Origin: Terriglobia bacterium
GTDB taxonomy: Bacteria; Acidobacteriota; Terriglobia; 20CM-2-55-15
Assembly (NCBI GenBank): GCA_963664115.2
Contig: CAXWPJ010000002.1
Span: forward strand, 288,001 to 352,000
Direction of reading: 5' to 3'
DNA length: 64,000 bases
In this document: positions 23,245-49,632 of the stretch, piece by piece
Layout of the letters: each line of letters opens with the position of its first letter
Numbering within the stretch: the first letter of the stretch is position 1
The notes under the pieces: model-generated
What the model was told of the DNA's origin: nothing
What the model saw: the letters and a program-made list of their open reading frames with translations, nothing else
The model's database searches: none
Program-made: the position numbers and the translations under genes

Positions 23245-23284
23245 TTCTCAGCGTCCGACAATGTCGTTTCTCAGGACTTGAGAA
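23245..23284 (-). repeat. 40-bp 17-6-17 palindromic site A (reverse orientation)
   Basis: TTCTCAGCGTCCGACAA-TGTCGT-TTCTCAGGACTTGAGAA. Confidence 0.85.
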
Positions 23285-23312
23285 TTTGACTTGAGAATTT
23301 AATAGCACCTAG

Positions 23313-25161: not shown

Positions 25162-25164
25162 CTA

Positions 25165-26315: not shown

Positions 26316-26379
26316 TAGCTCCCTCCCTTAGTATTCTTTACCGAGATTTTCGTTGTTCTTTCGGCGACACACTTTAATC

Positions 26380-26647
26380 ATGGAATCGGGCACTCAGCTA
26401 GGTCAGTACGAGATTCTGAGCCTTCTCGGTCAGGTTGGGGAATGGGTGAGGTGTGGCGTCCAAGGGACGCCAAGCCGGGACGCGAAGTGGCCATTAAGAC
26501 TTTGCCTGAGGAGATTGCCAAGGATGCGGATCGTCTCGCACGAATTGAACGTGAAGCGAAGCTTCTGGCTTCGCTCAATCATTCAAACATCGCTGTGATC
26601 CACGGGTTTGAAGAAGACAACGGGATGCACTTCCTTAGTCTTGGAAC
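26380..26647 (+). pseudogene. Ser/Thr protein kinase 5' fragment (copy 1), frameshifted and truncated
   Basis: [17 protein letters not shown], frameshift, then [37 protein letters not shown]; unrelated sequence follows. Confidence 0.85.
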
Positions 26648-26772
26648 CAACGCGGCAGACTTTCCAGCGAGCAGGCCATCCCTCGTTTGGCGGGCGAAGA
26701 ATCCTTTGACCTCTCAGTCGTTGACCTGCTTTAAGTTGACAGCAAAGTGTCGGGACGGCTTAAATCGTTAGC

Positions 26773-29241
26773 ATGTCTGACTCGATTCCAACTTCTCTTT
26801 CATCTATCCTGGGCGCTGCCCGTTCGGCCATGCCGTCGCTGCCGGTGCTTTTCGTTCTCATGCTCCTGCCGGCGCTCTCTTTGGCTCAGGAGGGCACCGC
26901 AGTTCTGTCCGGCCGCATTTTGGACGACTCCGACGGTTCGGCGGTCGGCTTCGCGACCGTGCTGATCAAGAACACCACGGGAGAGCCTCTCTCTGGTGTC
27001 CTTGCTGGAGAGGACGGCCGCTTCCTGATCGAGGGTTTGGCGCCGGGCAACTACACCATCGCGATGTCGTTTCCCGGGTTTTTCCCTGAGGAGGCCAACG
27101 TACTTGTCTCCGAACTCAACCAGTCTTACGACCTGGGTGATATCGGCCTCGTTCGTCAGGTGGTCGAGCAGGAGATTACGGTCACGGCAGAGGCGATCCG
27201 GGTGGCCGGTATAAACACCGAGCTGTTCCGGCTCGACGAAGGGCCGACCCAGTCGACCGGATCGCTGCTCGATGCGATGCGGAATCTTCCTGGTGTGACG
27301 ATCGATCAAGAAGGCAGAGTGGCGCTTCGTGGTAGCGATCAGGTCTCCATCCTTATTGACGGCAGGCAGTCGAGCCTGACGGGATTTGGAAGTCAACGCG
27401 GCCTCGACAGCGTTTCCGCGGCCAATATAGAAGCGATCGAGATCATCCACAATCCTTCTGCGAGCTTTGACGCCGCCGGAATGGCCGGAATCATCAACAT
27501 CATCTACAAACAGGAAACGGAACTGGGCCTCTCGGGAGATCTTGGCCTGTCCGTCGGCGTCGGCCAGTTCTCCAAGCAGCAGCCCGATCTGCCGACTGAT
27601 CTCGGCAGCTTTTCGAACAACGGGAAGATCACGCCCAGCCTAAGCCTGAACTACAACACCGAGAGCGTCCGCAGCTTCGTCCAGACCGAAGTCCTCGTGC
27701 AGGACGATCTGCCAAACAACGAGTTCACGACCCGCTTCTACGACGACGGTCGCGTCATCCAGTCACAGGTGCCGGAAAACCGCGAGCAGACGCACTACAT
27801 CGTCCGGGCAGGCTCGGACATCAGCGTCGGTAGTTCCAACACGCTTTCGGTTTCAGGGATCTACGACTTCGAAACACATACCGACCGTGCGCAGGTTCCC
27901 TTCATCCTGGCGTCCACCGGTGAACGCGAGCGATTTTGGTTCTGGCAGGAAGAGGAAGATACAGGTTTCGCCAACATCAACTTCGATCTCAAGCACGAAT
28001 TCCCGACGCCCGGGCATGAGCTGAACGTCAATCTCCAATACACGCGTGGATGGGAGGACGAGGCGTACTTTCTCAACGAGGAATCAAGGGTTCGCGTGGG
28101 CACGGACATGACCCATCTTGTCGCCGAAGAGAACACTCTGCCACTGAGCATCGATTACATACGCCCGCTGTCGAGCGGTCGGTTGGAGTTGGGCACGAAG
28201 CTCCAAGCGCGCTGGCTGCCAATCACCTACACAGTCGACCGTGGCGTGCAGAGCGTGATTTATGAAGGACTCGGCGACTCTTCCGACTGGGACGAGGACA
28301 TTTACGCCGCGTACGCCAACCTGGTCCAGGTGAAGAACTCGTACTCATTTGAGGCCGGAGTCCGCATCGAGCAGACCAACGTCGCCTACACGATCCCGGA
28401 CGAGAACATCTACTACGAGGGCAGCGACGCGTACAACTACTTCGAGGTCTTTCCAAACGTCAAGTTCACCTACCGGCTGGGCGACGCGAATCAGCTGATC
28501 GCCGCGTACAACCGGCGCATCGATCGACCGGGAGAACCGGAACTGCGCATCTTTCCAAAGTACGACGATCCGGAACTGCTCAAAGTGGGCAACCCGTTTC
28601 TCCGGCCCCAGTTGACCAACGTGTTTGAGGTCGGCTTCGGACGATCGTGGGACGGCGGTTCCGTCAACACTGCCATCTACCACAGGGATCTCGCAGACGC
28701 GTTCCAGCGCGTTTTCGCCATCGACGATACCAACCCGGACTACGACATCGTAAACAGGATCTTCGAGAACGCCGGAAACTCCACCCAGACCGGAATCGAG
28801 GTGATCGTGGAACAGCAGATCGCCGCCCCATGGCGTCTGTCCGGAAGCGTCAACTGGTTCACGAACGACATCGAAGCCCTGGAAACCACCTTGCTGTTCC
28901 CGACACCGCGGCCGTTCACTCTGGCCGCTTCGAGAGACGACACCTGGGATTTCACCATCAACAACCAGTTCCGACTGCCCCGCACGGGGGAACTCCAATT
29001 GAGCTACATCTATTACGCTCGGAGGAACGTCCCCCAAGGCCGCGAGCGTGCACGCTCGTCGCTCGATCTGGCCGCCACCTGGCCCATAGTGAACGAACGC
29101 TCCGAACTGGTGTTCACCTTCAGCGATATCTTCAACGATTTTGCTGTGGAACGTGAGATCGACGGTCAAGGCTTCACGGCGATCTACCAGAACTTGTTGG
29201 AATCGCAAGTTGTCAGCGTTGGCGTAAGAACCCGGTTCTGA
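26773..29241 (+). CDS. TonB-dependent receptor / outer-membrane beta-barrel with carboxypeptidase-regulatory-like N-domain
   Basis: LPGVTID..G..LRG, IEIIHNPSA.FDAAG.AGIINI plug motifs, GNPFLRP, C-terminal F. Confidence 0.9.
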   Translation: MSDSIPTSLSSILGAARSAMPSLPVLFVLMLLPALSLAQEGTAVLSGRILDDSDGSAVGFATVLIKNTTGEPLSGVLAGEDGRFLIEGLAPGNYTIAMSFPGFFPEEANVLVSELNQSYDLGDIGLVRQVVEQEITVTAEAIRVAGINTELFRLDEGPTQSTGSLLDAMRNLPGVTIDQEGRVALRGSDQVSILIDGRQSSLTGFGSQRGLDSVSAANIEAIEIIHNPSASFDAAGMAGIINIIYKQETELGLSGDLGLSVGVGQFSKQQPDLPTDLGSFSNNGKITPSLSLNYNTESVRSFVQTEVLVQDDLPNNEFTTRFYDDGRVIQSQVPENREQTHYIVRAGSDISVGSSNTLSVSGIYDFETHTDRAQVPFILASTGERERFWFWQEEEDTGFANINFDLKHEFPTPGHELNVNLQYTRGWEDEAYFLNEESRVRVGTDMTHLVAEENTLPLSIDYIRPLSSGRLELGTKLQARWLPITYTVDRGVQSVIYEGLGDSSDWDEDIYAAYANLVQVKNSYSFEAGVRIEQTNVAYTIPDENIYYEGSDAYNYFEVFPNVKFTYRLGDANQLIAAYNRRIDRPGEPELRIFPKYDDPELLKVGNPFLRPQLTNVFEVGFGRSWDGGSVNTAIYHRDLADAFQRVFAIDDTNPDYDIVNRIFENAGNSTQTGIEVIVEQQIAAPWRLSGSVNWFTNDIEALETTLLFPTPRPFTLAASRDDTWDFTINNQFRLPRTGELQLSYIYYARRNVPQGRERARSSLDLAATWPIVNERSELVFTFSDIFNDFAVEREIDGQGFTAIYQNLLESQVVSVGVRTRF

Positions 29242-29260: not shown

Positions 29261-29300
29261 TTCTCAAGTCCTGACAAATCATCTTCTCGGACGTTGAACT
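29261..29300 (+). repeat. Palindromic site B
   Basis: TTCTCAAGTCCTGACAA-ATCATC-TTCTCGGACGTTGAACT. Confidence 0.85.
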
Positions 29301-29529: not shown

Positions 29530-29928
29530 ATGTACTGGCCGCCAACTCGGACGTTTCTGAAATACATCGTCATTCAGATTCCGGGCTGGCTCGGGCTGGT
29601 AGGCGTGCTGCTTTTGCTGTGGCGTCGAGTGGAAATGCCCGCCTGGGCCGCCGGCACGCTGCTCGGTTGCTGGGTTGTGAAAGACCTTGCTCTCTATCCG
29701 TTCCTCCGACGGTCATACGAAGAAGATCCACGGACGGGAGTTGAGCGTATGGTGGGCCTCCGTGGAGTCGTCACCACCGACCTCACGCCAAAGGGTTACG
29801 TCCGCGTGCGCGGCGAGCTGTGGCGTGCGACGGCCCCAACAGGGCCCGTGCCCAGAGGAAGCACGGTGGAAGTCGTCAGTGCTGCTGGTCGTCTTACTTT
29901 GGCGGTTGAACGGGTGCCGGTGCCCTAA
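29530..29928 (+). CDS. NfeD-family protein whose last residues (ERVPVP*) come from the kinase-tail repeat
   Basis: Two TM segments then G.ERMVG..G.V...L.P.GYVRVRGELWRA; ends GAACGGGTGCCGGTGCCCTAA. Confidence 0.8.
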   Translation: MYWPPTRTFLKYIVIQIPGWLGLVGVLLLLWRRVEMPAWAAGTLLGCWVVKDLALYPFLRRSYEEDPRTGVERMVGLRGVVTTDLTPKGYVRVRGELWRATAPTGPVPRGSTVEVVSAAGRLTLAVERVPVP

Positions 29929-29965
29929 ACGACGGTGAAAATGATTCTCAAGTCCCGAGAAATCA

Positions 29966-31214
29966 GGTGATCTCAACAGATCGATGCAACACTGTACCTA
30001 AAAGGAGGAGGTGGAGTGTATGCGTAAGAAACGACGGAAGAAACAGAGTAAAGACCGGGTGCGGCGAGGCTACACACTCGCCGATATAGACGAGGTGTGG
30101 ATTCGCTGGCAGCGGGGAGAGAGTCTGAAAGCGATCGGACGTGTGTTCGGAAAGGAGGGCTCTTCGGTTTATGGTCAGATCGCACCGTATGGTGGAATCT
30201 GTCCCAGGACACGATGCCGCTCTAAGCGGGCGCTGACCCTCGCCGAGCGTGAAGAGATTTCCCGAGGCATTGCCGCCAAGGGATCGATCCGTTCAATTGC
30301 CGAGTCGCTGTCGCGTACACCCTCCACAGTCAGTCGGGAGATCGGTCGCAATGGGGGCTATGATAACTATCGAGCGTTGGAGGCGGATGAACGCGCATGG
30401 GAACGGGCTCACCGCCCGAAGAGATGTCGACTGATCCGCTATCCCAGCTTACGCGGGATCGTCGAAGAGAAGCTCCGGGAGGATTGGGCACCGCGACAAA
30501 TTGCGGGTTGGCTGAAACGCGAATATCCAGACGACGAGTCACTTTACGTGTCACACGAAACGATCTATCGCAGCCTTTTCATCCAGGCCCGCGGGGCTCT
30601 GAAGAAAGAACTGACACAGCATCTACGGACCAAACGCACGATTCGCCGGTCCCAGCATGCCAGTCGCAAAGGCCGGGGTGGCGGGCAGATCCCGGATCTG
30701 ATATCGATCCGTGAGCGCCCGGCTTCGGTTGAAGATCGCGCGGTCCCCGGACACTGGGAAGGGGATCTCATAGCGGGTTCGAACAACACCTACATTGCGA
30801 CATTGGTCGAACGTTTCTCCCGGTACGTGATGCTGGTGAAGGTTCCGAATAAGGAAACCGAAACCGTCATCAACGCGCTGATCGAACACGCAGACAAACT
30901 CCCGACCGAACTCTATAAAACACTGACCTGGGATCGCGGATTGGAAATGGCCAATCACAAACGGTTCACTCTGGCCACCGACATTGCCGTTTACTTTTGC
31001 GATCCGAGGAGTCCCTGGCAACGGGGTTCGAACGAAAACACGAACGGTTTGCTCCGACAGTATTTCCCTAAAGGTACGGACTTGTCGGTTCACTCACAGG
31101 AGCATTTGGATATGATCGCAAGGAAGCTCAACGGGCGACCTCGTGAGACGCTGGACTTCGCTAATCCGGCAGAGACATTAAACGCAGGTGTTGCATCGAC
31201 CGGTTGATCTGAAT
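29966..31214 (+). mobile_element. IS30-family element (1249 bp) inserted in the spacer of palindromic site C (29945-29965 + 31215-31235), CA duplication
   Basis: IR cores TCGATGCAACAC / GTGTTGCATCGA; the flanks rebuild TTCTCAAGTCCCGAGAA-ATCATC-TTGTCGGACGTTGAGAA. Confidence 0.9.
30011..31207 (+). CDS. IS30-family transposase
   Basis: VSHETIY, GHWEGDL, LTWDRG.EM, PWQRGSNENTNGLLRQYFPKG. Confidence 0.95.
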   Translation: MECMRKKRRKKQSKDRVRRGYTLADIDEVWIRWQRGESLKAIGRVFGKEGSSVYGQIAPYGGICPRTRCRSKRALTLAEREEISRGIAAKGSIRSIAESLSRTPSTVSREIGRNGGYDNYRALEADERAWERAHRPKRCRLIRYPSLRGIVEEKLREDWAPRQIAGWLKREYPDDESLYVSHETIYRSLFIQARGALKKELTQHLRTKRTIRRSQHASRKGRGGGQIPDLISIRERPASVEDRAVPGHWEGDLIAGSNNTYIATLVERFSRYVMLVKVPNKETETVINALIEHADKLPTELYKTLTWDRGLEMANHKRFTLATDIAVYFCDPRSPWQRGSNENTNGLLRQYFPKGTDLSVHSQEHLDMIARKLNGRPRETLDFANPAETLNAGVASTG

Positions 31215-31278
31215 CATCTTGTCGGACGTTGAGAATTGGATGCACGGCTTACTACCATGTTCGGCGTAGAAGGACCAT

Positions 31279-31947
31279 ATGGATCGGCATTCGATAGTCC
31301 TAAGGGCCGCCAAACCCACGTTCGATGAAGGTCTGGCATTTGCCCGCTACCTTGACGAAGCAGCCGAAGGATTCTTTCGTATCATGCTCGGTCGCCGCGC
31401 CAGGTACATAGTTGCCACGGCGTTCGCCCAGCCCGACCACGACCTCTCCTACCAGTATGTGACTTGCGCAGAACGTGACAACGTCATCGTGGGAATGATC
31501 TCGGGGTTCACCGCGGAGCAGCATCGCCGTTCCTCGCGCCAACCTCTGAAGCGGGCTGCCGGAAGGCGTAATCTACGAATGAGGATCGTGCTCATACTGT
31601 TTGCTCCACTCATGCGGATTATCGATTCAATCGCCGATGGCGATTTCTACGGCCTGGCCATCGCTGTTGATAAGGAACTTCGCGGCCATGGCGTCGGCTC
31701 CCTCTTGATGAACTCCATTGAAGAGCGGGCTCGAGCGAGCGGATCGACTCGACTATCCGCCGACGTTTCAGCTAAGAATGAGGGATCTCGCCGATTCTGC
31801 GAGCGCCGCGGGATGAACGTCGAGTCGCAGTGGCCGAAGCGATGGGCTATACCGGGATTGAAGTTCTATCGAATGACAAAAGAGCTCCGAGCCTTCAACC
31901 GTGAAAATGATTCTCAAGTCCTGACAAATCATCTTCTCGGACCTTGA
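31279..31947 (+). CDS. GNAT N-acetyltransferase; C-terminus reads into palindromic site D
   Basis: AIAVDKELRGHGVGSLL acetyl-CoA motif; N..SRRF.ER.G. Confidence 0.85.
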   Translation: MDRHSIVLRAAKPTFDEGLAFARYLDEAAEGFFRIMLGRRARYIVATAFAQPDHDLSYQYVTCAERDNVIVGMISGFTAEQHRRSSRQPLKRAAGRRNLRMRIVLILFAPLMRIIDSIADGDFYGLAIAVDKELRGHGVGSLLMNSIEERARASGSTRLSADVSAKNEGSRRFCERRGMNVESQWPKRWAIPGLKFYRMTKELRAFNRENDSQVLTNHLLGP

Positions 31948-31950
31948 GAA
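31911..31950 (+). repeat. Palindromic site D
   Basis: TTCTCAAGTCCTGACAA-ATCATC-TTCTCGGACCTTGAGAA, preceded by the shared linker CCGTGAAAATGA. Confidence 0.85.
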
Positions 31951-32058
31951 TTTCAGCGAACGAAAACTCTCCTCTCGCCTGCCGTTCCTCGATTGGCTTT
32001 CAACTGGCTGTATCTCCCATTGTTTCAATGGAATGCGGCGACACGCTAAGCTTGCCAA

Positions 32059-32098
32059 TTCTCACTGTCCGACAATGTCGTTTCTCAGGACTTGAGAA
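32059..32098 (-). repeat. Palindromic site E (reverse orientation)
   Basis: TTCTCACTGTCCGACAA-TGTCGT-TTCTCAGGACTTGAGAA. Confidence 0.85.
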
Positions 32099-32188
32099 TT
32101 TAATGTTGAGAATTTAATAGCGCCTAACTCCCTGCCTTAGTATTCTTTACCGAGTTTTTCGCAGCTTTTTCAGCGACACACTTTAAAC

Positions 32189-32605
32189 ATGGAATCTGGC
32201 ACCAAACTCGGCCACTACGAGATCTCAACGCTCTTAGGTAAAGGGTGGAATGGGTGAGGTGTGGCGTGCCAAGGACACCAAACTCGGGCGTGAAGTTGCG
32301 ATCAAGACACTTCCGGAAGAGTTTGCAAAGGATGCGGATCGCCTGGCCCGGTTTGAACGTGAAGCAAAGCTGCTTGCCTCTCTGAACCATCCGAACATTG
32401 CCGCTATTCACGGGTTTGAGCAAGACGGCGAGACACACTTCCTGGTTCTTGAACTTGTTGAAGGCGACACGCTGGCGGATCAGCGAGTTGCCGGTTAGTT
32501 TCCGCGGGGGAGTTGGGCGCCGGACGACACGATCGTCCTCGGACTGGGTGCCGGAGGGCTGGCTCGCGTTCCCGGAGGCGGTGGCAATCCGGAGATTGTC
32601 GCTAC
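32189..32605 (+). pseudogene. Ser/Thr kinase-TolB 5' fragment (copy 2) fused to an internal propeller scrap
   Basis: MESGTKLGHYEISTLLGK, frameshift, MGEVWRAKD...LVEGDTLADQ, then SWAPDDTIVLGLGAGGLARVPGGGGNPE resembling the propeller blades of the full copy. Confidence 0.85.
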
Positions 32606-32684
32606 CGCGACACTGCGGAGTTCTGACGTCAAGTTGACACTGCTCTTCTAATCCCCGCCCTCCTGCATCTCAAGCTCCTCCACG

Positions 32685-33059
32685 TTACTCTTCCCAACGG
32701 CCGATCGTCGTTCCATCACCTAACTTCGCGCCGACAAAGCCGCCCAGAGGGCGGCCGCTAATATCTCGACGCAACATCATGATCACCTCATCGCCCGGGG
32801 TAAACGTTGATGGGCCATAGCCTTGACGATACAGTTGAGCGGGGATACCCCATTCTGCGCTCCACTCAACTCTCTCACCCCCCTCGTCTGTGACATACAC
32901 CTGAATCCATGAATGGGGATTCTGGTATTGGAACTCCTTTATGATGCCCTCGATTCTCGTAATCTCCTCACTACGCCTACCCACGGTCGAGTGATGGGCA
33001 GCAGCAAACTCCGCAAAAAACACCAAAGCAACCGCGCCGACAAAACCAAACTTAACCAT
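32685..33059 (-). CDS. DUF6152-like secreted protein
   Basis: AAAHHS, QNPHSWIQV, W..EW; alternative start at 33101 from a tandem duplication. Confidence 0.8.
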   Translation of the reverse strand: MVKFGFVGAVALVFFAEFAAAHHSTVGRRSEEITRIEGIIKEFQYQNPHSWIQVYVTDEGGERVEWSAEWGIPAQLYRQGYGPSTFTPGDEVIMMLRRDISGRPLGGFVGAKLGDGTTIGRWEE

Positions 33060-33130
33060 CGATCGCATTCCTCTTCTCCTTTGACAAGATAACTTAACCA
33101 TCGATCGCACTCCTCTACTCCTTTGACAAG
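33049..33130. repeat. 42-bp tandem duplication covering an RBS and start codon
   Basis: AACTTAACCATCGATCGCA(T/C)TCCTCT(T/A)CTCCTTTGACAAG twice. Confidence 0.9.
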
Positions 33131-33218
33131 GCATCGCGTAACACTGACTGCATGCCGCTATTCCACTGGAACACCTCACCGTCCGCCGCCACAGCCAAGC
33201 TTCGCCCCTCTTGATCGA

Positions 33219-34076
33219 CTAATACTCGATTGTTCTCCCCTCTTCATCGACTACCGCTCGATTGTTCTCCGCGCATACGTAGTCGAATATGCGGAACCCA
33301 TCGGGTTGCTGATAGAAGCGCTTCTCGACAACCCAGGGCCTTGTCAGAGCTTGAGGATCTTCGAGAGTTATTTCCACCAACAACACATCTTCCAGTTCCC
33401 CCTGGTCGTTTGCCTCCTGCACGCGTCGAATGCGCGTCGTACCACGCGATTCCTCGCTCAGGACGAGTCCGCTTCTGTCTAAGATACTGTCTTGGTCGCT
33501 CCAACCTTTCAAGCCGATAGTCGTAAAGACGAGAGTATCGCCCTCCCAATGACCAACGGAGTCTCCGTAGAACGTATTCCACGCATCCTCCAAGTGGGGG
33601 CGTCCGTCTGTGTAGATCCTCATGATGCCGCGAGTATGTTCGCTAAGGACCCAGACTTGTTCGGGGCGGACGATGAATTCCGCATTCATGTTCACATTGA
33701 ATATCCGCGGAAACCCGTGCGGAATGCACCTCGTGAGCGGATCGGGAAACCGTCCCTGATCCCTGAGTTCTACATGACTCTGGTAGATCGCCTCCCACTC
33801 CTCGGTATAGGGAGGATGGGCACGAGTGCCCACCGTGTTCACGCCGTATTCGCGGATGTTCGGGTCGGCAGGTTCCCCGTTCAGGGTCCAGGTCTCTTCG
33901 TCGAAAACTGGTCCGGCCCTCCTGGCCCAAACGCCACTCCAATCAGGAAGCGAATCGGAGTCTCGAAGCACCGCTTCTTGTTCCGACTCCAGCGTAGAAC
34001 CAGAAGAAATGGGAACCGCTGCGGTCACAACCGCCGTCAGCGTCAGCGCGACACAGGCCACGCGGCGAGTCAACAT
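33219..34076 (-). CDS. Secreted 'WEGDTLV' family protein
   Basis: PDWSGVW, DPLTRCIPHGFPR, GDSVGHWEGDTLV, EDP.ALTRPW, DYVCAENN. Confidence 0.85.
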   Translation of the reverse strand: MLTRRVACVALTLTAVVTAAVPISSGSTLESEQEAVLRDSDSLPDWSGVWARRAGPVFDEETWTLNGEPADPNIREYGVNTVGTRAHPPYTEEWEAIYQSHVELRDQGRFPDPLTRCIPHGFPRIFNVNMNAEFIVRPEQVWVLSEHTRGIMRIYTDGRPHLEDAWNTFYGDSVGHWEGDTLVFTTIGLKGWSDQDSILDRSGLVLSEESRGTTRIRRVQEANDQGELEDVLLVEITLEDPQALTRPWVVEKRFYQQPDGFRIFDYVCAENNRAVVDEEGRTIEY

Positions 34077-34389
34077 CTTGAATCCCCTCTCTTGCATTGC
34101 CAAATTACCTCTCTGTCTAAAATGCTTTGCTGTCCCAGTCCGATGGGCTGCATCGATTCAAAACGTCAATAACAGCGAAGATACTCATCTTGATCCTGTG
34201 GACTGATGTTCGTTGGCTCATGAACGCTCACCCCCTAAACGGGGACGTTCAATTTGGTTGCTCAGATCACATCTTTTATACACTGACACCCGCCCGACAG
34301 GCCAGATTTTTCTGTCCCCTCTGTTCCAACATCAGCGAGACGCCTGCCTGATCGATAATTAGTGAGCAGGGCGGGAAGCCTTTTCTACG

Positions 34390-34677
34390 GTGCAGATCGA
34401 AGTGATGAGCCGGACCAGCTCGCCCTCCACTGGTCGTGCGTATGGTCTGGCCCGTGTGCTGGCGGCAGAATTCGTGGCCGGCGCGCCCGATATTGTTATG
34501 CAGGGAGACTACCTCGCGCCCAACAACGGCCGTCCGTATTCCGTTTCGTCTGACGGACAAAGGTTTCTTATGATCAAGGACGCCACGATAGCAGGGGATA
34601 GTGATGTCCTCCCACCCCAGGTCAACATTGTCTTGAACTGGACGAGTGAGCTGCTCGAGCGCGTGCCGGTCCCTTAA
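34390..34677 (+). pseudogene. Ser/Thr kinase-TolB 3' fragment
   Basis: YSVSSDGQRFLMIK...QVNIVLNWTSELLERVPVP*, paralogous to the end of 36384-38822. Confidence 0.8.
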
Positions 34678-34772
34678 TTGTCTGGCAGCCTGCCCGCAGA
34701 GCTTCTTCCCTGTGCTTCAAGTCTGATTAGGTAACGAGTGGTCACGTAGTGTCTAGGAACCACTGGCACCTA

Positions 34773-34835
34773 ACGTCCCAGAAGTCACCTTATGGGAAGT
34801 CAGGTCCCGATAAATCAATTGTCGGACAGTGAGAA
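34773..34835 (+). repeat. Two adjacent dif-like sites: second class 11-6-11 (34773-34800) and palindromic site F (34803-34835)
   Basis: ACGTCCCAGAA-GTCACC-TTATGGGAAGT then GGTCCCGATAA-ATCAA-TTGTCGGACAGTGAGAA. Confidence 0.75.
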
Positions 34836-35203
34836 TTGGATGAGATCCGCCAGCTCACAACTTTCTTGCTTATAACCCATACCTGTAGTTAGATTTATCC
34901 AACTTTTTCACGTTTCGTTTCGGCACACACTAATTTATGGAATCTGGCACCAAACTCGGCCACTACGAGATCTCAACGCTCCTTGGAAAAGGAGGCATGG
35001 GGGAAGTGTGGCGTGCCCGGGACACGAAACTGGGGCGTGAAGTTGCGATCAAAACCCTGCCAGAAGAGTTTGCTAAAGATGCTGATCGGTTGGCACGCTT
35101 TGAACGTGAAGCCAAACTTCTGGCGTCGCTGAATCACCCAAACATTGCAGCCATCCACGGGTTTGAAGAGGACAACGGAACGCACTTCCTTGTGCTGGAA
35201 CTA

Positions 35204-36354
35204 GTGGTCCCCGTTAAACAGACTGTAACTTATCAAGATTTCGCCGGCCGCGCTGGACTTTAGCAAGGATGTCGGAAGCCGTTGCAGTCCAGATGAAGGG
35301 TTTCGGGTCTTCATTGTGACGAGCGAGGTAGTCCTCCACGGCCTGGATCAACTCGGGGACCGAGCGGAAAACGCCACGCCGGAGTCGTTGCTCGGACAGA
35401 TCCCGGAAAAAGCGCTCGACCATGTTGAGCCACGACGCACTGGTTGGCGTGAAGTGCACATGAAAACGCTTGTTACGCTTGAGCCAGTTGACGACTTTCT
35501 GATGTTTGTGAGTCGCATAGTTGTCGCAAATAATGTGGATCTCCTTATCTTTCGGCATGGCGCGTTTGATCTGATTCAGAAACCGGATCCATTCCTGATG
35601 GCGATGCTTTGGCATGCAGGTTCCGATGACCGAACCGTCCAGGATGTTGAGCGCGGCGAAAAGCGTGGTTGTCCCGTTACGTTTGTAATCGTGGGTCATG
35701 GTGCCACACCGCCCCTTCTTCAGAGGTAACCCGGGTTGCGTGCGGTCCAGGGCCTGCATCTGGCTCTTCTCATCGCAGGACAAGACAATGGCGTTTTCCG
35801 GTGGGCTCAGATACAGACCGACCACATCCTCCAGCTTTTCGGCGAATCGTTTGTCGTTGGATAGTTTGAAGGTTCGTGACAGATGAGGCTTCAGTCCATG
35901 GACCCGCCAGATTTTCCCGACCGTGGACTCGCTCACGCCAACGGCCTTCGCCATCGAGGCCCGACTCCAGTGCGTCGCGTTCGGGGGCTTCTCTTCCAGT
36001 GTCTTCTTGACGATCCGGGCTCGCTTCCGGCGACTGATCGTGGGAATCCGTCCGCTTCGCGGCGCATCCTTTTCGATCCCAGCCAAGCCCTGTTCCACAA
36101 AACGATTGCGCCAGCGGCCCGCTTTCTGGCGCGTGATCTCCAAGCGGGCGGCGATCTCATAATTGTTCCGACCTTCAGCGGCCAGTAATACAATTCGGGA
36201 TCGTTCCGCCAACCGGACCGATGTACTCCGGCTTCGACTCAGTCGCTCCAACTCCATCCGCTGCTTGTCATCCAATTCAATGGTCGGTGCTTTCCTCATT
36301 CTCTATTGGACGTTGGAAAGCTATTTTAGTTACATTACTTCGAGCGGGGTACAC
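35204..36354 (-). mobile_element. IS630-family insertion sequence, copy 2 (transposase 35214-36299)
   Basis: Identical protein to copy 1; TA duplication in CTAG. Confidence 0.9.
35214..36299 (-). CDS. IS630-family transposase
   Basis: Identical to 25220-26305. Confidence 0.95.
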   Translation of the reverse strand: MRKAPTIELDDKQRMELERLSRSRSTSVRLAERSRIVLLAAEGRNNYEIAARLEITRQKAGRWRNRFVEQGLAGIEKDAPRSGRIPTISRRKRARIVKKTLEEKPPNATHWSRASMAKAVGVSESTVGKIWRVHGLKPHLSRTFKLSNDKRFAEKLEDVVGLYLSPPENAIVLSCDEKSQMQALDRTQPGLPLKKGRCGTMTHDYKRNGTTTLFAALNILDGSVIGTCMPKHRHQEWIRFLNQIKRAMPKDKEIHIICDNYATHKHQKVVNWLKRNKRFHVHFTPTSASWLNMVERFFRDLSEQRLRRGVFRSVPELIQAVEDYLARHNEDPKPFIWTATASDILAKVQRGRRNLDKLQSV

Positions 36355-38838
36355 TAGTAGAAGGCGACACGCTTGCGGATCAGTTGAAGCGTGGTGCCAT
36401 TCCTGTCGAAGAATCACTGAAGCTAGCCTTACAAATCGCGGAGGCTTTGGAGGCCGCGCATGAAAAAGGGGTCATCCACCGTGACCTGAAACCAGCGAAC
36501 GTCAAGGTCACACCAGACGGGAAAGTGAAGGTGTTGGATTTCGGCCTCGCAAAAGCCTTTGACGGGGGCGCCGCTGACGCAAACGTATCGAACTCTCCCA
36601 CGCTCAGCATGGCCGCGACACAGCAGGGTGTCATCCTCGGGACAGCGGCGTACATGTCGCCGGAGCAAGCCCGAGGTGAGAACGCTGACCAGAGGGTCGA
36701 TGTATGGGCTTTCGGAGTGGTTCTGTTTGAGATGCTGACCGGTCGCGGGACGTTTGATGGACACACAGTTTCTGATGTTCTGGCTGCCGTTCTTGCCAGA
36801 GACCCGGATTGGAATAGCCTTCCCCACAACCTACACGCGCAACTGCGGCGACTCCTTGAACGATGCCTATCGAAAGAGTTGAAAGACCGATACCACGGCA
36901 TTGCTGATGCGCGGGTGGATATTGAGAGCGTATTGGCTGATCCCAACGGTGTGATTGCGCAGCCAGTCGCTCAAGTTGTTCAGGCCACCCCGCCGAGACT
37001 CCACGTGGTGGCCGCAATCGCTCTGGCCGCCATGGTTGCCGGTGTGAGTGTCTGGACTCTGAAACCAACCGACCCTCGCCCGGTCAGCCGCCTTGAATAC
37101 AACCTGCCAGAGGGACTCGCTGTACTGGTTCCTAACGGGCGGCCTGCAGTCGCCATTTCACCCAACGGGGAGCAGTTCGTATACTACGCTAACAGTATTG
37201 GGGATAGTGAAGAAGGGCTCTACGTTCGCTCGATGGATGAACTTGAAGCCCGCATTATTCCGGGCGCGGAAAATCCGGAGAACCTCGTCTTCTCACCCGA
37301 CGGGCAGGAAATTGCCTACTACCAAGGAGCGGCGCCCGGGCGATTGATGAAGATCGCAGTTAGTGGTGGTGCACCTGTGACTCTTTCGGAACCAATTGGG
37401 AATCCTTTTGGCGTGAGCTGGGAGTCAGACGGCACGATTCTTTTCGGGCAATCAGATGGGATCTGGAGCGTGTCGGAAAGCGGTGGTGAACCAGACCATT
37501 TGATAGTAACAGAACCGGGTGAACAGGTTCACGGGCCGCAGCTTCTGCCCGGGGGAGAATGGATTCTGTTCACGCTTACTGGTGAGACTGGAGACAGCCG
37601 TTGGGACGAAGCCAACATCGTTGTCGAGTCGCTTTCCTCCGGCGAGCGTCGAGTATTGCGACAGGGCGGCAGCGACGCTCGTTATGTTCCGACTGGACAT
37701 CTCGTCTATGCTTTCGGAGATGGGCTCTTCGCCTTGCCCTTCGATGTGGACAGTCTGGAACTCAGTGGGGGACCCACATCGATACTTCAAGGTGTTCGAC
37801 GGGCCTTTGCCCCAGGACTCCAGACCGGCGTAGCGTATTATGGCTTTTCCAACAACGGGACGCTCGTTTATCTTCCCGCACCTCCTCCTTACGGTGTGTC
37901 CACGCTGGTCACAGTGGATCGTAGTGGGAACCCCCAGTCCTTCACCGGCGAAGCGCGCAACTATACCCGACCCCGGGTCTCACCCGACGGCAGCCGCGTT
38001 GCCGTAGAGGCCACCGAGACAGGCGGAGCTACACCTACCCACATTTGGATCGTGGATATTGAAACCGGGAATGGCACGCAACTGACGTTTGAAGGATCGC
38101 AGAATGAGTTTCCTGTGTGGGCGCCCGATAGTCAGACGGTCGTCTTCAGGTCTGACAGATCCGGGAGGATGGCGCTTTACACGAAGTCGGCGGCTGGCAG
38201 CGGAGAGGCTGAATTAGTGTTTGAAGGAAGCGGCACGCTGGTTGCCACCGACGTGCTACCCGATGGGACCCTGCTCTTGCAGGAGTCCAACGGTGACAAC
38301 GATGACATCTGGACACTGCCTTTAGACGGCGACGGCTCTCCCTCGGAGTTCCTGGCGACACCGGCCAATGAGCGGAGTGCACGCTTCTCTCCCGACGGCA
38401 GATGGATCGCATACATTTCCGACGAGTCCGGCCAGTTTCATGTCTACGTGCGACCCTACCCTAGGTCGAACGGAGGGCAGAGGCGCGTTTCAGAAAGTGG
38501 GTTTGGGAACTATGCGCCGGTCTGGTCTCCCGATGGGGGCCAGCTATACTATGTCGCGGGACCTCCAGAGATTCTGATGAACGTCCCGATACAGACAGAC
38601 CCCAACCTGCTGCCTGGCCGCCCACAAGAATTGTTCCCGATCGATGGAGCATTTCAGGCCGACGCGCGGACAACATTTGTCCCACTCTGGGGTCTCACTC
38701 CCGATGGGACACAATTCGTATTCGTCCAAGCGGCAGCGCGGGACAACCCCGACGTACCCACGCAATTCAACGTCGTCCTGAACTGGTTTGAAGAACTGAA
38801 AGAACGGGTGCCGGTGCCATAGATGACCGTGAAAATGA

Positions 38839-38878
38839 TTCTCAAGTCCTGAGAAATCATCTTGTCGGACATTGAGAA
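38839..38878 (+). repeat. Palindromic site G (best copy)
   Basis: TTCTCAAGTCCTGAGAA-ATCATC-TTGTCGGACATTGAGAA, 16 bp after the kinase stop. Confidence 0.9.
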
Positions 38879-39035
38879 TTCTTGAACATAGGTGCCGAGT
38901 CACGAAAAGTCCGGAGACGCCGTAAATGAAGCCGAAAAGCATGAACTTCCACTCAACTGTAAATTGCCTGCTCGTAGTGGCTGTTGCCATCGGGATGGAG
39001 GCCGCGTTCTGCGGTACTAACGCGGGGGGGGCGAT

Positions 39036-40559
39036 ATGAATCGACGAGAGTTCATTGGCAGTGCGACGGGCTTGGGTGCGGCATTGGCATTCCCCGCCGG
39101 GCGTTCAAGTAGACTCATGGCGATTCAACTGCCAACCGACATCGTCGGCTTCACTGCGTCGCAACTGTCGACGGCTATCCAACAAAGACAAGTTAGTTGC
39201 GTCGAAGTGATGGAAGCCTATCTACAACAGATTCACCGTTACAATCCAGTCTATAACGCCATCGTCAGCATGGCCGATGACGATCTGCTAATCAGCCAGG
39301 CGGAACTCGCCGATCAAGCCTTGGCCCGCGGCGAATATCGGGGTTGGATGCACGGAATGCCTCATGCCGTCAAGGACCTGTACGATGCGGAAGGCTTTCC
39401 AACAAGCAGGGGCTCTACCATCTACGCGGGAACCGTGGCGGAACAAGATAGTTTCATGATCGGCAGAATCCGTAGCCAGGGCGCGATCTTCATAGGAAAG
39501 ACGAATGTGCCTGAATTTGGTATGGGTTCGCAATCATACAACCCTGTATTCGGTGCCACGGGCAGCGCGTACAATCCGGCACTGACGGCAGGTGGTAGCA
39601 GTGGTGGCGCCGCAAGTGGTCTTGGGACCCACATGCTTCCGGTGGCTGACGGTGGTGACTTGATGGGGTCGCTTCGCAATCCAGGCGCCTTCAATAACGT
39701 GATCGGATTTAGGCCTAGTCAGGGGCGAGTGCCGGGCGGTGGCGGGGGCGACCTGTTTTACCAGCAGATGTCCACAGGTGGTCCGATGGGGCGTAACAGT
39801 GAAGATACGATTCGCCTTCTGCACAGTATCGCCGGCTACGACTCCGGCCAACCGCTGACCCTCAGGGGTGAAATACCGCCCTATGAGGAGTTCAGGGCGC
39901 GTGATCTACGGGACCTCAAAATCGGGTGGATGGAAAATTATGAAGGCTATCTCAACATCGAACCTGGCATTCTTGAACTCTGTGAAGCCAGCCTCGGTGG
40001 TCTCACAAGAGAGGGCGCGATTGTCGAGTCGTGCAGGCCACAGTACGACATGGACCGGCTTTGGCAGACTTGGCTGACGTTACGCCACTGGACCCGTCAC
40101 GGAACTAGGGCGCTCTACGACGATCCCGACACTCGAAAGCTGTTAAAGCCGGAAGCCATCTGGGAGATCGAAGGCTCGTTCGACGCTTCGGGGGCGGATA
40201 TATACGAGGCAGGAATCGCCCGTGCAGACTGGTTCCGTGCTTTGGATTCTCTGTTTGATGAGTACGACTTCTTGGTCTTGCCAACTGCTCAGGTATTTCC
40301 TTTCTCAAAGGAGATTCATTGGCCCGAGTCCATCAACGGCGTTCGGATGGACACCTATCATCGCTGGATGGAGGTAGTAATTGGGGGGACATTGGCTGGC
40401 CTCCCAGTGGTCAACGTACCCGTGGGGTTCGATCAGCGGGGCCGACCCATGGGCATGCAAGTCATGGGACGGTTCGGGGAGGATCAGAGGATTCTGGAAT
40501 TTGCCATGGCCTACGAACGAGTTACGGATCACCTAGACCTGCGTCCAGAATTGGTTTAA
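39036..40559 (+). CDS. Amidase signature family enzyme, Tat-exported
   Basis: NRREF Tat motif; AVKD, GKTNVPEF, GGSSGG, DGGDLMGSLRNP. Confidence 0.9.
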   Translation: MNRREFIGSATGLGAALAFPAGRSSRLMAIQLPTDIVGFTASQLSTAIQQRQVSCVEVMEAYLQQIHRYNPVYNAIVSMADDDLLISQAELADQALARGEYRGWMHGMPHAVKDLYDAEGFPTSRGSTIYAGTVAEQDSFMIGRIRSQGAIFIGKTNVPEFGMGSQSYNPVFGATGSAYNPALTAGGSSGGAASGLGTHMLPVADGGDLMGSLRNPGAFNNVIGFRPSQGRVPGGGGGDLFYQQMSTGGPMGRNSEDTIRLLHSIAGYDSGQPLTLRGEIPPYEEFRARDLRDLKIGWMENYEGYLNIEPGILELCEASLGGLTREGAIVESCRPQYDMDRLWQTWLTLRHWTRHGTRALYDDPDTRKLLKPEAIWEIEGSFDASGADIYEAGIARADWFRALDSLFDEYDFLVLPTAQVFPFSKEIHWPESINGVRMDTYHRWMEVVIGGTLAGLPVVNVPVGFDQRGRPMGMQVMGRFGEDQRILEFAMAYERVTDHLDLRPELV

Positions 40560-40743
40560 AGAACTGAAGGAACGGGTGCCGGTGCCGTGATCGGTTTGCA
40601 TTTCCTACTCACCACTCGACCAGCGTCTCTTCCGTAATCGCCGCCCCGCAGCCATCGAAACGAACCCTGCGCTTCATTGACAGTGCCATTCGCAAACTCT
40701 ACAATTCGCTGAAAACTGCTCCGCATTACAAGAGGTGACTCCA

Positions 40744-41724
40744 ATGAAACGAGCTATGGTATATGTGGCGTCGGGCGCGGTGTGCGCTATTCTTTCCTGC
40801 GGTTCCGCCTTTTCCCAGGAAGCTATTCCGACTGGAGGCCCGATTCCCGACATACGCGGATTCACCAGCCGGCTCAACGATCCCGAGGCGGTTGCGGCGA
40901 TCGAGGTAGTTGTCCGCCATGTTGCCGGGCAGGTGTACGTGATTGCGGGCGCAGGTGGGAATGTGACGGTCATGGCGGGCGATGATGGCATTTTCATCGT
41001 CGACACGAATTACCCCGCTTTCTACGACCAGATCATAGCCGCAATTCGACGCATCTCGGACGGGCCCATCCGCTTCGTGGTCAACACGCACTCTCACCTA
41101 GACCACAGCGGCAACAACGAAAGCTTTGCCAGGGAGGGCGCGGTGATCATCACTCAGCCCAACCTGCGCCGGGCGTTGATAGGAGATCGCAGCGGTTCGG
41201 ATCTTCCGGGCGGATTGCCTGTGATCACATCGACGGAACCGATGTCGTTTCACTTCAACGGGGAGGAAGTTCTCTTCGTGCCGTTGAAGCCCTCGCACAC
41301 GGACGGAGACGCGGCGGTGTACTTCAGCGGTTCCGACGTGTGGTCCTTTGGTGACGTGTACCGGACGGACTATCCGTCCTTGAATCCCTCCGTTGGTGGC
41401 ACGATTGAGAATTTCGTTGATATTTACAGCATGGCGCTTGATATGACGACGCCGGCCACGATTTTTGTCCCCGGCCACGGCCAACTCTCGCCCAGAGAGG
41501 AGCTGAGCGGAGTGCTTGACGCCGTGATCACGATTCAGGGTCGTTTCCGCGACATGGTGGCACGGGGCATGACGCTCGACGAGATCATGGAGGCACGTCC
41601 GTCAAGGGAGTTCGATGCTCGCTTCTCCAGCGAATCCAAATCGCCCACCACGGGCAATACGGTAGAGCGCGTTTACACTCGCTTTTACGAAGATGTTTCA
41701 CGGGAGCTGGCGGAACAACAGTGA
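40744..41724 (+). CDS. MBL-fold metallo-hydrolase (cyclase-like), exported
   Basis: NTHSHLDHSGNN, SHTDGD, FGD, VPGHG. Confidence 0.9.
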   Translation: MKRAMVYVASGAVCAILSCGSAFSQEAIPTGGPIPDIRGFTSRLNDPEAVAAIEVVVRHVAGQVYVIAGAGGNVTVMAGDDGIFIVDTNYPAFYDQIIAAIRRISDGPIRFVVNTHSHLDHSGNNESFAREGAVIITQPNLRRALIGDRSGSDLPGGLPVITSTEPMSFHFNGEEVLFVPLKPSHTDGDAAVYFSGSDVWSFGDVYRTDYPSLNPSVGGTIENFVDIYSMALDMTTPATIFVPGHGQLSPREELSGVLDAVITIQGRFRDMVARGMTLDEIMEARPSREFDARFSSESKSPTTGNTVERVYTRFYEDVSRELAEQQ

Positions 41725-42006
41725 AGGACTTCCCCGGATGGGTCCTGTCATGTTAGCTGGAATTCGTTCTGTTTCGAGGAGAAATCGATTCTAGCCAGGC
41801 CAGGAATCATCAACTTAGCTGGCATTGCGATCAGTGAAATCTTCATTTGATCGGTTTACTTGGCAACCCCTTTCTGTAGGACCGTCTTCTCTACACATGG
41901 TGGCCGCTAGAAAATCAACATCGTCCTGAACTGCTTGAAGAACTGAAGGAACGGGTGCCGGTTCCTTAGACGACCGTGAAAATGATTGTCAACGCCCGAT
42001 AAATCA

Positions 42007-42082
42007 ATTCGGATCAACCGGTCGATGCAACACTTTACTGAAAAGGAGAGGTCAAGTGTTGCATCGATCTATTGAGACCACC
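42007..42082. mobile_element. 76-bp IS30-type MITE inserted in the spacer of palindromic site H (41986-42006 + 42083-42103), CA duplication
   Basis: ATTCGGATCAACCGGTCGATGCAACAC...GTGTTGCATCGATCTATTGAGACCACC closely match both ends of the IS30 at 29966-31214. Confidence 0.85.
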
Positions 42083-42490
42083 CATCTTCGCGGACGTTGA
42101 GAATGCGTCGATTCCAATCATTGCTTCCAACCCACTCGTTCTAAAGCATAGGACTGGTTGCCCTAAGCCGACTCCTGGGGCGTTGAATTTGGATCGGTAA
42201 ACGAAACGGCGTTACTCGCGAGTAATCGTCGTTGATACCGCACGTCCTCAACCGCCGCGGACTGGGTGTCCGCAGCCCTTTCGACACTCTTGAACCTATA
42301 GTCGCTGTGCAAATCATCGAAAGATGGGGGTATGCGGTCATCTAGGTCTACAATGAGAGAAATCGGGATGGTAGCACTCCTCCATTAGCACCCACCGCAT
42401 CTGCTCTGCGAAGTCATCCTGTGCTGGTCCGGCCGTCCAAACCGAGGCACTGGATCGACGCTCCAAAACCTGTCGGTCACCCGGAGAACC

Positions 42491-44179
42491 ATGGAACTCG
42501 AAGAGAAATCTAATGAAGTGCAGAATCTCATCGCTAGGGGGAAGGAAAAGGGCTACTTGCTCTACGAGGACGTGAGCGATCTCCTGCCGCCCCAGATGAC
42601 GGCTTCGGCCGAGGCTCTCGAGGACCTGTTTTCTGCTTTCGACGCGGCCGGAATCGAGGTGATTGAGACCGAGGATCAGTCCTTTGCGACCGAGAAGCTG
42701 ACCCCATCGAAGAGACCCACTGCGGCGACGCGCACGAATGAAGTGACGTCGGACCTCACTCCGGGCGCTCGGGACAGGACGAATGACCCGATCCGCATGT
42801 ACCTGCGTGAGATGGGCACGGTTCCCCTCTTGACGCGTGCTGGCGAAGTACAGATTGCCAAGAGGATCGAACGGGGGCAGTTGCGGGTGCAGCAGTCGCT
42901 CTCTCGCTCCCCGCTGGTAATCCAGAAGATTCTGGCTGCAGGCGAGGCGTTGAAGAAGGATCCCAGCGTCATCAAAAACCTCGCGCAATTCACCCAAGAT
43001 GATCTGACTGAGGAGAGGATCGAAGAGATCCACGGCAACGTGGTTGAGACCATTGCTCAGATCAAGAGACTCAACCGCCGAGTGGGCACGCTCCAGACGA
43101 AACTGGTATCGATTCCGAGGTCTCGAAAGGCGAGGGAGCATCATAAGGCACGCTGGAAATTGGGTCGGAAACGAGTCGAACTCTCCAGGCTTGTCCGATC
43201 TTTGGATTATTCGGCAACGGAAAAGATGGCCTTGATTCTGCTCGTGCGCGAAGCTATCAGCATCATTCGACCGTTGGAGAAACAATTGGCCCATCTGGAG
43301 CGCAGTAAGGGCCACACGAGGAAGGAATACAGGAAGAACGTCCAGAAAGAAATCCGTGCGGTCAAGCGGAAGATCAAGGCTTTCGAACAAGAGCACGATA
43401 CGACCGCCCTGGAACTACGTCGCACGCTGCAGTCGATCGTGCGCGGCCAGAACCAGGCCGAAAACGCAAAGCGGGAACTCGTAGAAGCAAACTTGCGTTT
43501 GGTCGTTTCGATCGCTAAGAAGTACTCGAATCGAGGCTTGCAGTTGCTCGACATGATCCAGGAAGGCAACGTCGGCCTGATGAGGGCTACCGATAAGTTT
43601 GAGTACCGAAGAGGGTATAAGTTTTCGACCTACGCGACCTGGTGGATCCGGCAGGGGATTACGCGGGCGATCTCCGATCAGGCAAGAACAATCCGTGTTC
43701 CGGTCCACATGATGGAGATGATTAACAAAATGATACGGACTTCCCGGATGCTGGTTCACGAATTGGGGCATGAGCCGACCAACGACGAAATTGCAGAGAA
43801 GATGGGGATCCCCGTAGGGAAGGTCCGGAAAATCATGAAGGTCGCTCAGCAACCGATCTCACTGGAAACGCCGATCGGAGAAGAGGACGATTCCCATTTG
43901 GGGGATTTTATCGAGGACCCAGGCGCGGTCTCCCCTTCCGATGCGGTGGTCAAGCTGAACCTCAATGAGATGACCGAGCAGGTCCTGAACACGCTGACGC
44001 CTCGTGAGGAGCGCATCATCAAGATGAGATTTGGCTTGGAGGACGGCAGCGAACACACCTTAGAAGAAGTTGGACAGATCTTTGGCGTGACCCGAGAGAG
44101 GATCCGTCAGATTGAAGCGAAGGCTCTCAAAAGGCTGCGCCACCCGACGAAGAGTTCGCGCCTCAGGGGCCTTTTGTGA
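42491..44179 (+). CDS. rpoD: RNA polymerase sigma-70 factor, RpoD type
   Basis: Region 1.1 GKEKGYL, 1.2 [11 protein letters not shown], 2 [15 protein letters not shown] and YATWWIRQ, 4 [22 protein letters not shown]. Confidence 0.9.
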
Positions 44180-44243
44180 CGGCACGGGGCTCGACTGATT
44201 TATCTTAAAATTGAAGGAACGGGTGCCGGTGCCCTGATTTCCA

Positions 44244-44456
44244 AGTTCAAGTCCTGTTGAGATCACACCCGTTGTCGGACGTTGACCTTCGCGGAAAAGT
44301 GTCTAGGACCTGGAGTAACGCCGGATTAGTAACGATAAGTCGCCTAGCGTTTAGGAATCGGGGGCATTAACGACCCAGAAGTCGGCTTAGGGGAAGTTGG
44401 CGGAGACAGAGATGACGGCTCAAGTCCTGAGAAATCATCTTCTCGGACATTGAGAG
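44244..44456 (+). repeat. Site cluster: degenerate site I (44244-44287), second-class site (44370-44397), site J (44417-44456)
   Basis: TCAAGTCCTG...TTGTCGGACGTTGA; ACGACCCAGAA-GTCGGC-TTAGGGGAAGT; CTCAAGTCCTGAGAA-ATCATC-TTCTCGGACATTGAGA. Confidence 0.8.
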
Positions 44457-44535
44457 TCGAAGCTACAACTTTCCGATAGGCCGACTGGAGTCTATGTATG
44501 CCGTCGAACCGGCATCAACACACGAAAGGATAGGG

Positions 44536-44970
44536 ATGGTTCCCTCGGAGAAAGAAATAACTGCACAAGAGTTCGAAAAGCGACTGGCGGCGCTCTGTCG
44601 CGGCACGAATTCCGGTCTGCCTAGAAAACATCGGGATCGTCACATCATATTCAGAAGTATCGTTCAGACACTCGACGCAAAGGTCATGTATTCCGAGCAA
44701 TCGCTCAACGAGGGCTTGAAGGCATGGGTGTCTGAAGTCGGCATGGGAATTGCGGTCGATCACGTAACACTTAGGCGCTATTTGGTCGATGCAGGGTATC
44801 TATGTCGTGATCGCCAAGGGACTAACTATCGGGTACAAATTGGTGGGGCTGGAGAGGTGAGATTCGAACCCTCGGTAGGCAGCGTAGATTCAGCCGCTGT
44901 CATTCATTCGGCGCGTGAGCAGGCAGCCATTCGGAAGCGCGATCGATCCGTACAATCTCCGCAGAACTGA
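44536..44970 (+). CDS. DUF2087 domain protein
   Basis: YSE..LNE.L..W and DHVTLRRYLVD.GYL.RD motifs; stop lies inside a kinase-tail repeat. Confidence 0.75.
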   Translation: MVPSEKEITAQEFEKRLAALCRGTNSGLPRKHRDRHIIFRSIVQTLDAKVMYSEQSLNEGLKAWVSEVGMGIAVDHVTLRRYLVDAGYLCRDRQGTNYRVQIGGAGEVRFEPSVGSVDSAAVIHSAREQAAIRKRDRSVQSPQN

Positions 44971-45051
44971 AGGAACGGGTCCCGACCCCCTGATTCTTGA
45001 GTTCAGGTCCTTCCAGCATTTGACACCTGGGTGTGTTGACCTGTCGCATGG

Positions 45052-49563: not shown

Positions 49564-49632
49564 TCCTCAAGGAGACCTATATATCTTCGAATGGCCCAGA
49601 GCCGAAGCAGGCTTAGGGCAACGGGAGCCGCC

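Follow-up and report, generated by a model that had tools for sequence, protein, structure and literature searches.

Hollowed kinase gene cassettes and a palindromic candidate exchange site in the chromosome of a Terriglobia bacterium

How does the end of one kinase gene come to close the 3' ends of genes unrelated to it? The question is raised by a 64,000-nucleotide stretch of a Terriglobia bacterium genome (contig CAXWPJ010000002.1, positions 288,001 to 352,000), here called the window, in which the last codons of a gene for a Ser/Thr kinase with a TolB-like propeller, the "tail", are present seven times, ending at 29928, 34677, 38822, 40590, 41969, 44237 and 44993. One 26-mer is matched with at most two mismatches by four of the seven copies, against none expected from 100 shuffles, and in three copies the linker GAC(C/G)GTGAAAATGA precedes a palindromic site, P. 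We compared the genome holding the window (4.9 Mb; G000) with relatives (G001, G002 and so on; contigs are given as C1, C12 and so on), among them a sister species in which modules of the window recur. The modules bearing these tails are hollowed kinase cassettes, in which leader and tail remnants are kept and a passenger replaces the middle; the tail is the junction of capture, and P the likely site of exchange. We give roughly one chance in two to the reading as a whole, namely that kinase-cassette remnants have had their middles replaced, that P is a swap site for a tyrosine recombinase, and that the enzyme is an IntI-like recombinase supplied in trans by IS91-type elements.

The joins between passengers and tails carry the first part of this answer. 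The NfeD passenger (29530..29928, +) takes its C-terminal ERVPVP from a tail remnant read in frame (29908-29928), as a first-pass annotation of this DNA had proposed. Only two of 120 NfeD homologues end in VPVP, both of which look like the window cassette; homologues commonly end in ...VER, and the join falls on those five shared bases. The stop codons of the amidase (39036..40559, +) and of the DUF2087 gene (44494..44993, +) lie within the tail, again as first described. All five amidase orthologues (87-92% identical) end differently, extending three codons further; the window copy lost these codons where it crosses into its tail remnant (40542..40590, +; no P behind, and the 65 bp downstream common to G004), within about 17 bp over which the gene end resembles the tail, and its stop is taken from the tail. 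The G002 orthologue has the tail about 80 bp past the natural stop, a different join. In the second rpoD gene (42491..44198, +; 71% to the native gene), the gap of about 30 bp before the tail proved to be due to a +1 frameshift that removes the last residues, on which independent contigs agree without differences. Homology persists to the ancestral stop at 44196-44198, about 10 bp before the tail. The DUF2087 join could not be mapped because non-cassette homologues are only 43-62% identical. Incoming genes had been thought to join at or near the tail, and the joins indeed lie inside it or just before it. The description of tails as 3' ends of unrelated genes fails for two copies: that at 34677 closes a kinase C-terminal remnant, and that at 41969, about 210 bp downstream of a metallo-beta-lactamase-fold gene, ends no gene. 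The copy at 38822, taken as native, is correctly placed, but its kinase gene (34937..38822, +; tail 38767-38822) is interrupted by an IS630 insertion sequence (IS; 35197-36358). Pfam confirmed the gene labels of the window.

The remainder of the genome shows what these joins belong to. One kinase-propeller family is represented in G000 by about 100 fragments, mostly short N- or C-terminal remnants with few full genes, and module anatomy follows the order P, leader remnant, passenger, tail remnant, P. On the right flanks of P, five leader families with members reaching the kinase start account for 64 of 168 flanks, and 50 flanks are singletons. On the left flanks of 120 distinct P sites, no kinase-end remnant is present in 25 and spacer only in 26 (51 tail-less); the tail measures at most 11 nt in 8, 12-23 nt in 1, 24-47 nt in 26 and at least 48 nt in 34. 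The tail core is mostly either complete or missing; the tail has a sharp 3' edge and a 5' edge ragged over 14 to >56 nt. The proposal that a coding tail serves as a recombination junction therefore stands for capture and falls for sharp exchange, since the 5' edge is ragged, many palindromes are tail-less and changes of neighbour map to P.

Modules recur beside new neighbours, and it is at P that the neighbours switch. The NfeD unit from P to P (29262-29961) has a 99.7% copy at C12:161236-161927 with a different upstream neighbour. The GNAT module also occurs at C12 and in G001, and the DUF2087 module in G002, where its upstream neighbour is different. When 342 kb of G002 array DNA was compared with IS-masked G000, 17 of 136 shared segments of at least 450 bp stopped at P in both genomes. 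Among 210 distinct P sites, 19 pairs share the downstream side only and 14 pairs the upstream side only, the switch falling within 34 bp. Intervals from P to P hold one gene in 25 of 75 cases, with 118 genes in sense and 69 in antisense by a rough gene caller (n = 187), and the median module is 2.1 kb. In G002 (L167, C1:1800983-1802614), two genes of the operon found at window positions 48445-50061 were captured as a P-to-P module with the signal-peptide start replaced.

P is a 38-bp dyad of a 16-bp arm, a 6-bp core and a 16-bp arm, with the core ATCATC in 124 of 171 G000 sites and in none of the reversed control. An inverted partner, P*, with core ACGACA or ACGACC, precedes kinase promoters at about 20-22 sites in G000, as against the 124 P cores, and most modules are bounded by direct rather than inverted sites. 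Behind the same tail, relatives carry a homologous 38-mer whose core reads GTCGCC and whose outer arms differ on either side from those of G000 (CAC...GTG in place of CAA...TTG); it gives 81 strand hits against none in the reversed control, and hybrids with one arm of each type occur. The arms covary across genera. P has the general form of a tyrosine-recombinase site, dyad arms around an asymmetric core of 6-8 bp. A folding signal is present in the G000 type (z -2.2) and lacking from the homologous type of relatives (z -0.2), so that P is probably a double-stranded protein site rather than a hairpin. The attC sites of integrons, as defined in the accessible part of one source, span 57-141 bp with YAAC/GTTR pairing (PMC5371416). 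P was rejected as an attC, being 38-44 bp long with this pairing absent; the base before TTGA is G in 76, A in 42, C in 31 and T in 2 of 151 sites, and the left arm is mostly CAAG. It was likewise rejected as a dif or pdif site, for a scan with the XerC/XerD 11+6+11 pattern misses P, yet finds a canonical-looking dif candidate on C2 of G000 (about 108,120-108,146, -). Other elements insert in P, and three unclassified ones do so in every copy: the first begins after the third base of the core (8 of 8), the second behind the left arm (12 of 12), and the third has all 3 of its copies there. About 21 of 24 IS30 ends (labelled by domain scan) lie in P, as does one of five group II-like starts. Helical phasing between tail and P (R 0.38, p 0.03, on 24 distinct distances) is not significant on 12 merged classes and is not claimed.

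The elements are numerous and clustered. Profiles built from the window copies, searched at E<=0.1 with the reversed genome as control, find 151 tails and 242 P sites in G000; the best reversed matches have E of 0.48 and 0.41, respectively. A same-strand P lies within 100 bp of 83 of the 151 tails, 59 of them at one spacing and 11 at another. Arrays, 33 in all, gather 372 of the 393 elements, mostly co-oriented within an array, and total 638 kb or about 13% of the genome. Their positions are not conserved, since in G002 and G003 the orthologues of the genes left of the window array lead into other DNA. Linkage to tRNA genes was not found, two of the 33 arrays containing one and the others lying 2-260 kb from one, and no replication-strand bias is claimed for the tails (82 vs 61, with a noisy skew). 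Across 41 genomes, the P pattern was matched in six (G000 132, G002 91, G003 43, G001 10, G007 1, G017 1) and the tail pattern in 11, which represent four genera. In a species collection the tail has exact matches at 24 loci, of which 23 bear the title Terriglobia and the last Acidobacteria; viral contigs contain no exact match to P or tail. A strict pattern of the relatives' site gave 0 of 301 phylum-wide, in a search where G000 also scores 0 and family members were not drawn. At L039, L042 and L051 (G013, G021), GTAG-type repeats resembling repetitive extragenic palindromes (REP) and BIMEs replace P between a kinase tail and the next kinase start. At L021, L028, L034 and L043, tandem kinase genes have a stop overlapping the next start codon right behind the tail.

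Which enzyme might act at P? Eight modules of G000 consist of a tyrosine recombinase of the 293-amino-acid type (one encoded at C1:92965-93846) with the N-terminal SAM domain of IntI, together with an IS91 transposase (IS91-Int). Such recombinases of IS91-family elements are placed, in the accessible text of one study, in an integron-like subgroup without IntI's insertion (10.1101/542381). Seven of the eight are inserted where core meets arm in a P-type site or half-site. Of the six with both ends mapped, five restore a site in which one arm or more is strong; the remaining two of the eight follow a P or P* half-site. The 29 distinct IS91-Int targets in G001 and G017, taken from right flanks, are mostly not P dyads. 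They match the inner part of the left arm of P at 4.03 of 7 positions (control 1.88, maximum 2.69 in 2000 draws), and their preferred core ends in CGT, as that of P* does. The recombinase's own preference thus fits the site, and the IntI-like recombinase of IS91-type elements is our best candidate for the enzyme.

Other candidates were rejected or lack support. A lone IntI, a complete integron integrase at C9:714590-715759 of G000 (L001:14591-15760, -; TIGR02249, 439 bits, above the cut-off), lies about 190 kb from the nearest P, and none was found in G003, G004 or G007. A 316-amino-acid tyrosine recombinase on C5 (52189-53139, L084) sits between two outward-facing P*-kinase starts, and a relative in G007 also lies within an array region; this integrase was not found in G002, G003 or G004. 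Large serine recombinases (PF07508) are absent from G000, G002 and G003, and small resolvases show no pattern. A RAYT-like gene scores 56 bits against a cut-off of 80 and has one P, upstream only. Two RAYT-like Y1 genes (L002:6040-6816 and 8650-9159) stand beside a tRNA-end fragment and a nucleotidyltransferase/antitoxin-like pair, the latter labelled by eye.

The window itself holds all stages. Its array begins on the left with a P* site (23243..23285, -; core variant ACGACA), separated by two IS from a kinase promoter with N-terminal remnant (26315..26650, +). A TonB-dependent receptor follows as passenger (26773..29241, +), which has a 92% paralogue elsewhere with homology ending at the stop codon, and then a P without tail (29262..29299, +). 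Behind NfeD, the core of P (29946..31234, +) is split by an IS30-family element (about 29966-31211). The GNAT passenger (31279..31947, +) reads through linker and P (31912..31949, +), again without tail, and a P* site follows (32057..32099, -). A shell with both kinase remnants (32124-34677) then surrounds two antisense genes: a kinase promoter and N-terminal remnant (32124..32490, +), the passengers DUF6152 and a 294-amino-acid protein (32685..34103, -), common to G002 up to P, and a C-terminal remnant with a divergent tail (34390..34677, +), with a degenerate P behind (34798..34835, +). A 42-bp tandem duplication at the DUF6152 start (33049-33130) has one copy fewer in run X8. The P behind the IS630-split kinase gene (38840..38877, +) shows both 16-bp arms and the ATCATC core. 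After the amidase come the metallo-beta-lactamase-fold passenger (40735..41724, +), with paralogues in other arrays, a tail remnant (41921..41969, +) and a P (41987..42102, +) split by an internally deleted IS30 of two ends only (about 80 bp); similar IS30 minis are found in relatives. The rpoD passenger is followed by a tail remnant and P with an IS30-like scar (44209..44286, +) and by a P without tail (44418..44455, +); DUF2087 closes on its tail remnant (44963-44993), then a degenerate P. A 1.86-kb DDE_Tnp_1_4 element at 8800-10658 and 23309-25167 has dozens of near-identical copies genome-wide, high-copy IS making up about 7% of G000. An Rfam scan of positions 22000-52000 gave no match at E<=1.

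The tail is also unusual in its codons. Identical tail residues use the same codon in 0.68 of cases (52 kinase C-terminal frames, 1211 distant pairs). Codon usage predicts 0.40, and the corresponding values are 0.37 for the propeller and 0.43-0.48 for the kinase domain; only the final two codons of the tail vary freely. The frames were found by nucleotide profile, which is a bias, and a protein-based search of G000 recovered 17 intact ends, 16 of them already listed. The tail codons are conserved beyond the need of the protein, in a way that makes constraint and homogenisation indistinguishable in these data.

How might such modules be made? A founding cassette, a kinase gene flanked by P and P*, would first have multiplied. 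Foreign or paralogous DNA would then have entered by illegitimate end-joining at microhomologies of 5-17 bp. The copies of passengers found in related genomes are 85-92% identical to them, so the donors are kin, and the joins would have formed by homology-facilitated or microhomology end-joining, a route to joins of this kind. Modules would be trimmed toward the passenger stop codon, with the tail able to supply a stop in any of the three frames, and could excise and insert at P. The tail core would be retained entire or not at all, probably because it binds an accessory protein or adds homology. The fullest form of this account is possible at rather less than even odds: the kinase gene would be a blank cassette whose interior is replaced by genes of kin through microhomology joins, its last codons an accessory recombination element, and an IS91-borne relative of IntI would shuffle the products at a double-stranded 38-bp site among about 30 arrays, an eighth of the chromosome.

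Several observations weigh against exchange at P by this enzyme. None of the 136 segments shared with G002 has both ends at P. Six variable positions inside P follow neither flank, giving no single crossover point; as identity changes across P with these positions unlinked, exchange maps to P and not to one bond, and the lack of such a bond is the main weakness of a site-specific reading. Excised module circles were not seen in the contigs, which are the only data. In genera g4 and g10, many tails run straight into the next kinase start, and P is absent there. The other arm of P matches IS91-Int targets at 2.76 of 7 positions only, such that one arm fits well. The IS91 transposase was not found in G003 (43 P), G023 or G038, and G018 has an IS91-Int element with neither tail nor P. 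The IS91-Int elements may merely exploit another protein's site, as three or four other elements do.

Some of these observations feed the strongest rival, in which there is no dedicated recombinase: host homologous or short-homology recombination would act over joint blocks of 100-400 bp (tail, spacer, P and leader) in tandem kinase arrays, with P an operator or a REP-like passenger repeat. Crossovers unfixed within P and the junctions of relatives from tail to kinase start without P both agree with this, homogenisation would explain the codon conservation, and no recombinase gene, integrase or attI is tied to the arrays. We consider it unlikely, though still a serious explanation. Tail-less, P-only modules with unrelated spacers recur beside new neighbours, leaving 34-44 bp of homology; the 16+6+16 geometry is kept while the arms change; and the target consensus of a tyrosine recombinase fits the arm, with insertion at the core edge.

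In a reading close to that of the first-pass annotation, the tail itself would be the attachment core, in the manner of islands that integrate into a gene 3' end and restore it, and P would be an adjoining element end. The tail is indeed the more widespread of the two at nucleotide level (11 vs 6 of the 41 genomes), its 3' edge is sharp, and one join in 120 falls in its 3' 12-23 nt. The ragged 5' edge and the 51 tail-less sites count against a core, as do arrays that lie away from tRNAs without an integrase, in genomes lacking large serine recombinases, and we regard the idea as improbable. More improbable still is capture templated by RNA, in which a reverse transcriptase would copy P and tail and switch onto mRNA 3' ends. 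G000 has five reverse transcriptase genes, and within 60 bp of 67 truncated tails 21 genes end in sense and none in antisense (control 21% and 20%; a few of them duplicates), an asymmetry that arises because antisense genes need promoter room. The nearest gene is antisense at 25 of the 67, which, with the antisense genes between P sites, favours the capture and trimming of DNA over the copying of mRNA; a median module of 2.1 kb and the absence of adenine-specific variation in tails also speak against RNA. Assembly chimeras, which an IS-rich metagenome assembly with some long near-identical duplicates between contigs might suggest, have next to no probability, for the NfeD and rpoD joins to the tail are bridged by contigs from four studies' runs and the DUF2087 join by three, and the same joins occur in other species; for these three joins the idea is refuted. 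Among the bridging runs, X12 represents a diverged strain and those nearest may be the source sample itself; the amidase join is absent from the listed pieces, and joints with short sides, which derive from other loci, were left out.

How does this platform compare with known systems? SCC elements at rlmH and islands at tRNA or tmRNA genes duplicate the 3' end of a target gene as a sharp direct repeat and encode a serine or tyrosine integrase. In both, the 3' end of a coding sequence recurs from one tandem unit to the next, but here the repeat has a ragged 5' side and does not restore anything, and an integrase encoded by the element was not found. REP, BIME and REPIN sequences are dispersed extragenic hairpins with RAYT genes flanked by them. 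P resembles them in its hundreds of short palindromes near gene ends, its inverted pairs and its use as an IS target, and differs in being confined to arrays, in forming no hairpin in relatives, and in that RAYT-like genes miss the cut-off and have no P pair around them. Diversity-generating retroelements have a template repeat/variable repeat pair with adenine-specific changes; this class was rejected, the adenine-rich tail being conserved.

Integrons offer closer parallels: modules stand in tandem, mostly in one orientation, and each ends in a repeated site at which stops often fall; specialised IS and a group II intron insert at that site (PMC3001079); and the candidate enzyme here comes from the integron-like subgroup. 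In contrast to integrons, the roughly 33 arrays here lie at non-conserved places without integrase or attI; P is short, unpaired and, in relatives, unfolded; and modules are often multi-gene and antisense, with ends that are kinase-gene remnants. The pdif (XerCD-dif) modules of Acinetobacter share, on the part of the source available, the double-stranded dyad, the 6-bp core, inverted partners like P and P*, a recombinase in trans and gene modules between sites (PMC9771954). The arms here are 16 bp and unlike dif, the sites chromosomal and mostly in direct orientation, the ends kinase-derived, and the dif candidate separate. IS91-family elements with a tyrosine recombinase, present here in eight copies inserted at the core edge of P-type sites, have no target site or cassette role named in the accessible part of their description (10.1101/542381), and the modules here carry neither enzyme. 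The arrays are an undescribed cassette platform, integron- or pdif-like in effect and a member of neither; no description of a kinase-shell cassette system was found in the full-text literature, a scope outside which subscription papers and supplements fall.

De novo formation of integron cassettes is, in the available text of one source, largely unknown (PMC5371416). Here intact kinase cassettes coexist with hollowed shells and trimmed modules, and base-level alignment to the donors is possible, so that one way in which cassettes arise becomes readable and testable. If the reading is true, it would give IS91-associated relatives of IntI a function and a target, and would add a new pair of recombinase and site for modules of several kilobases. 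It would also offer a rare direct view of how gene cassettes arise, readable from orthologues.

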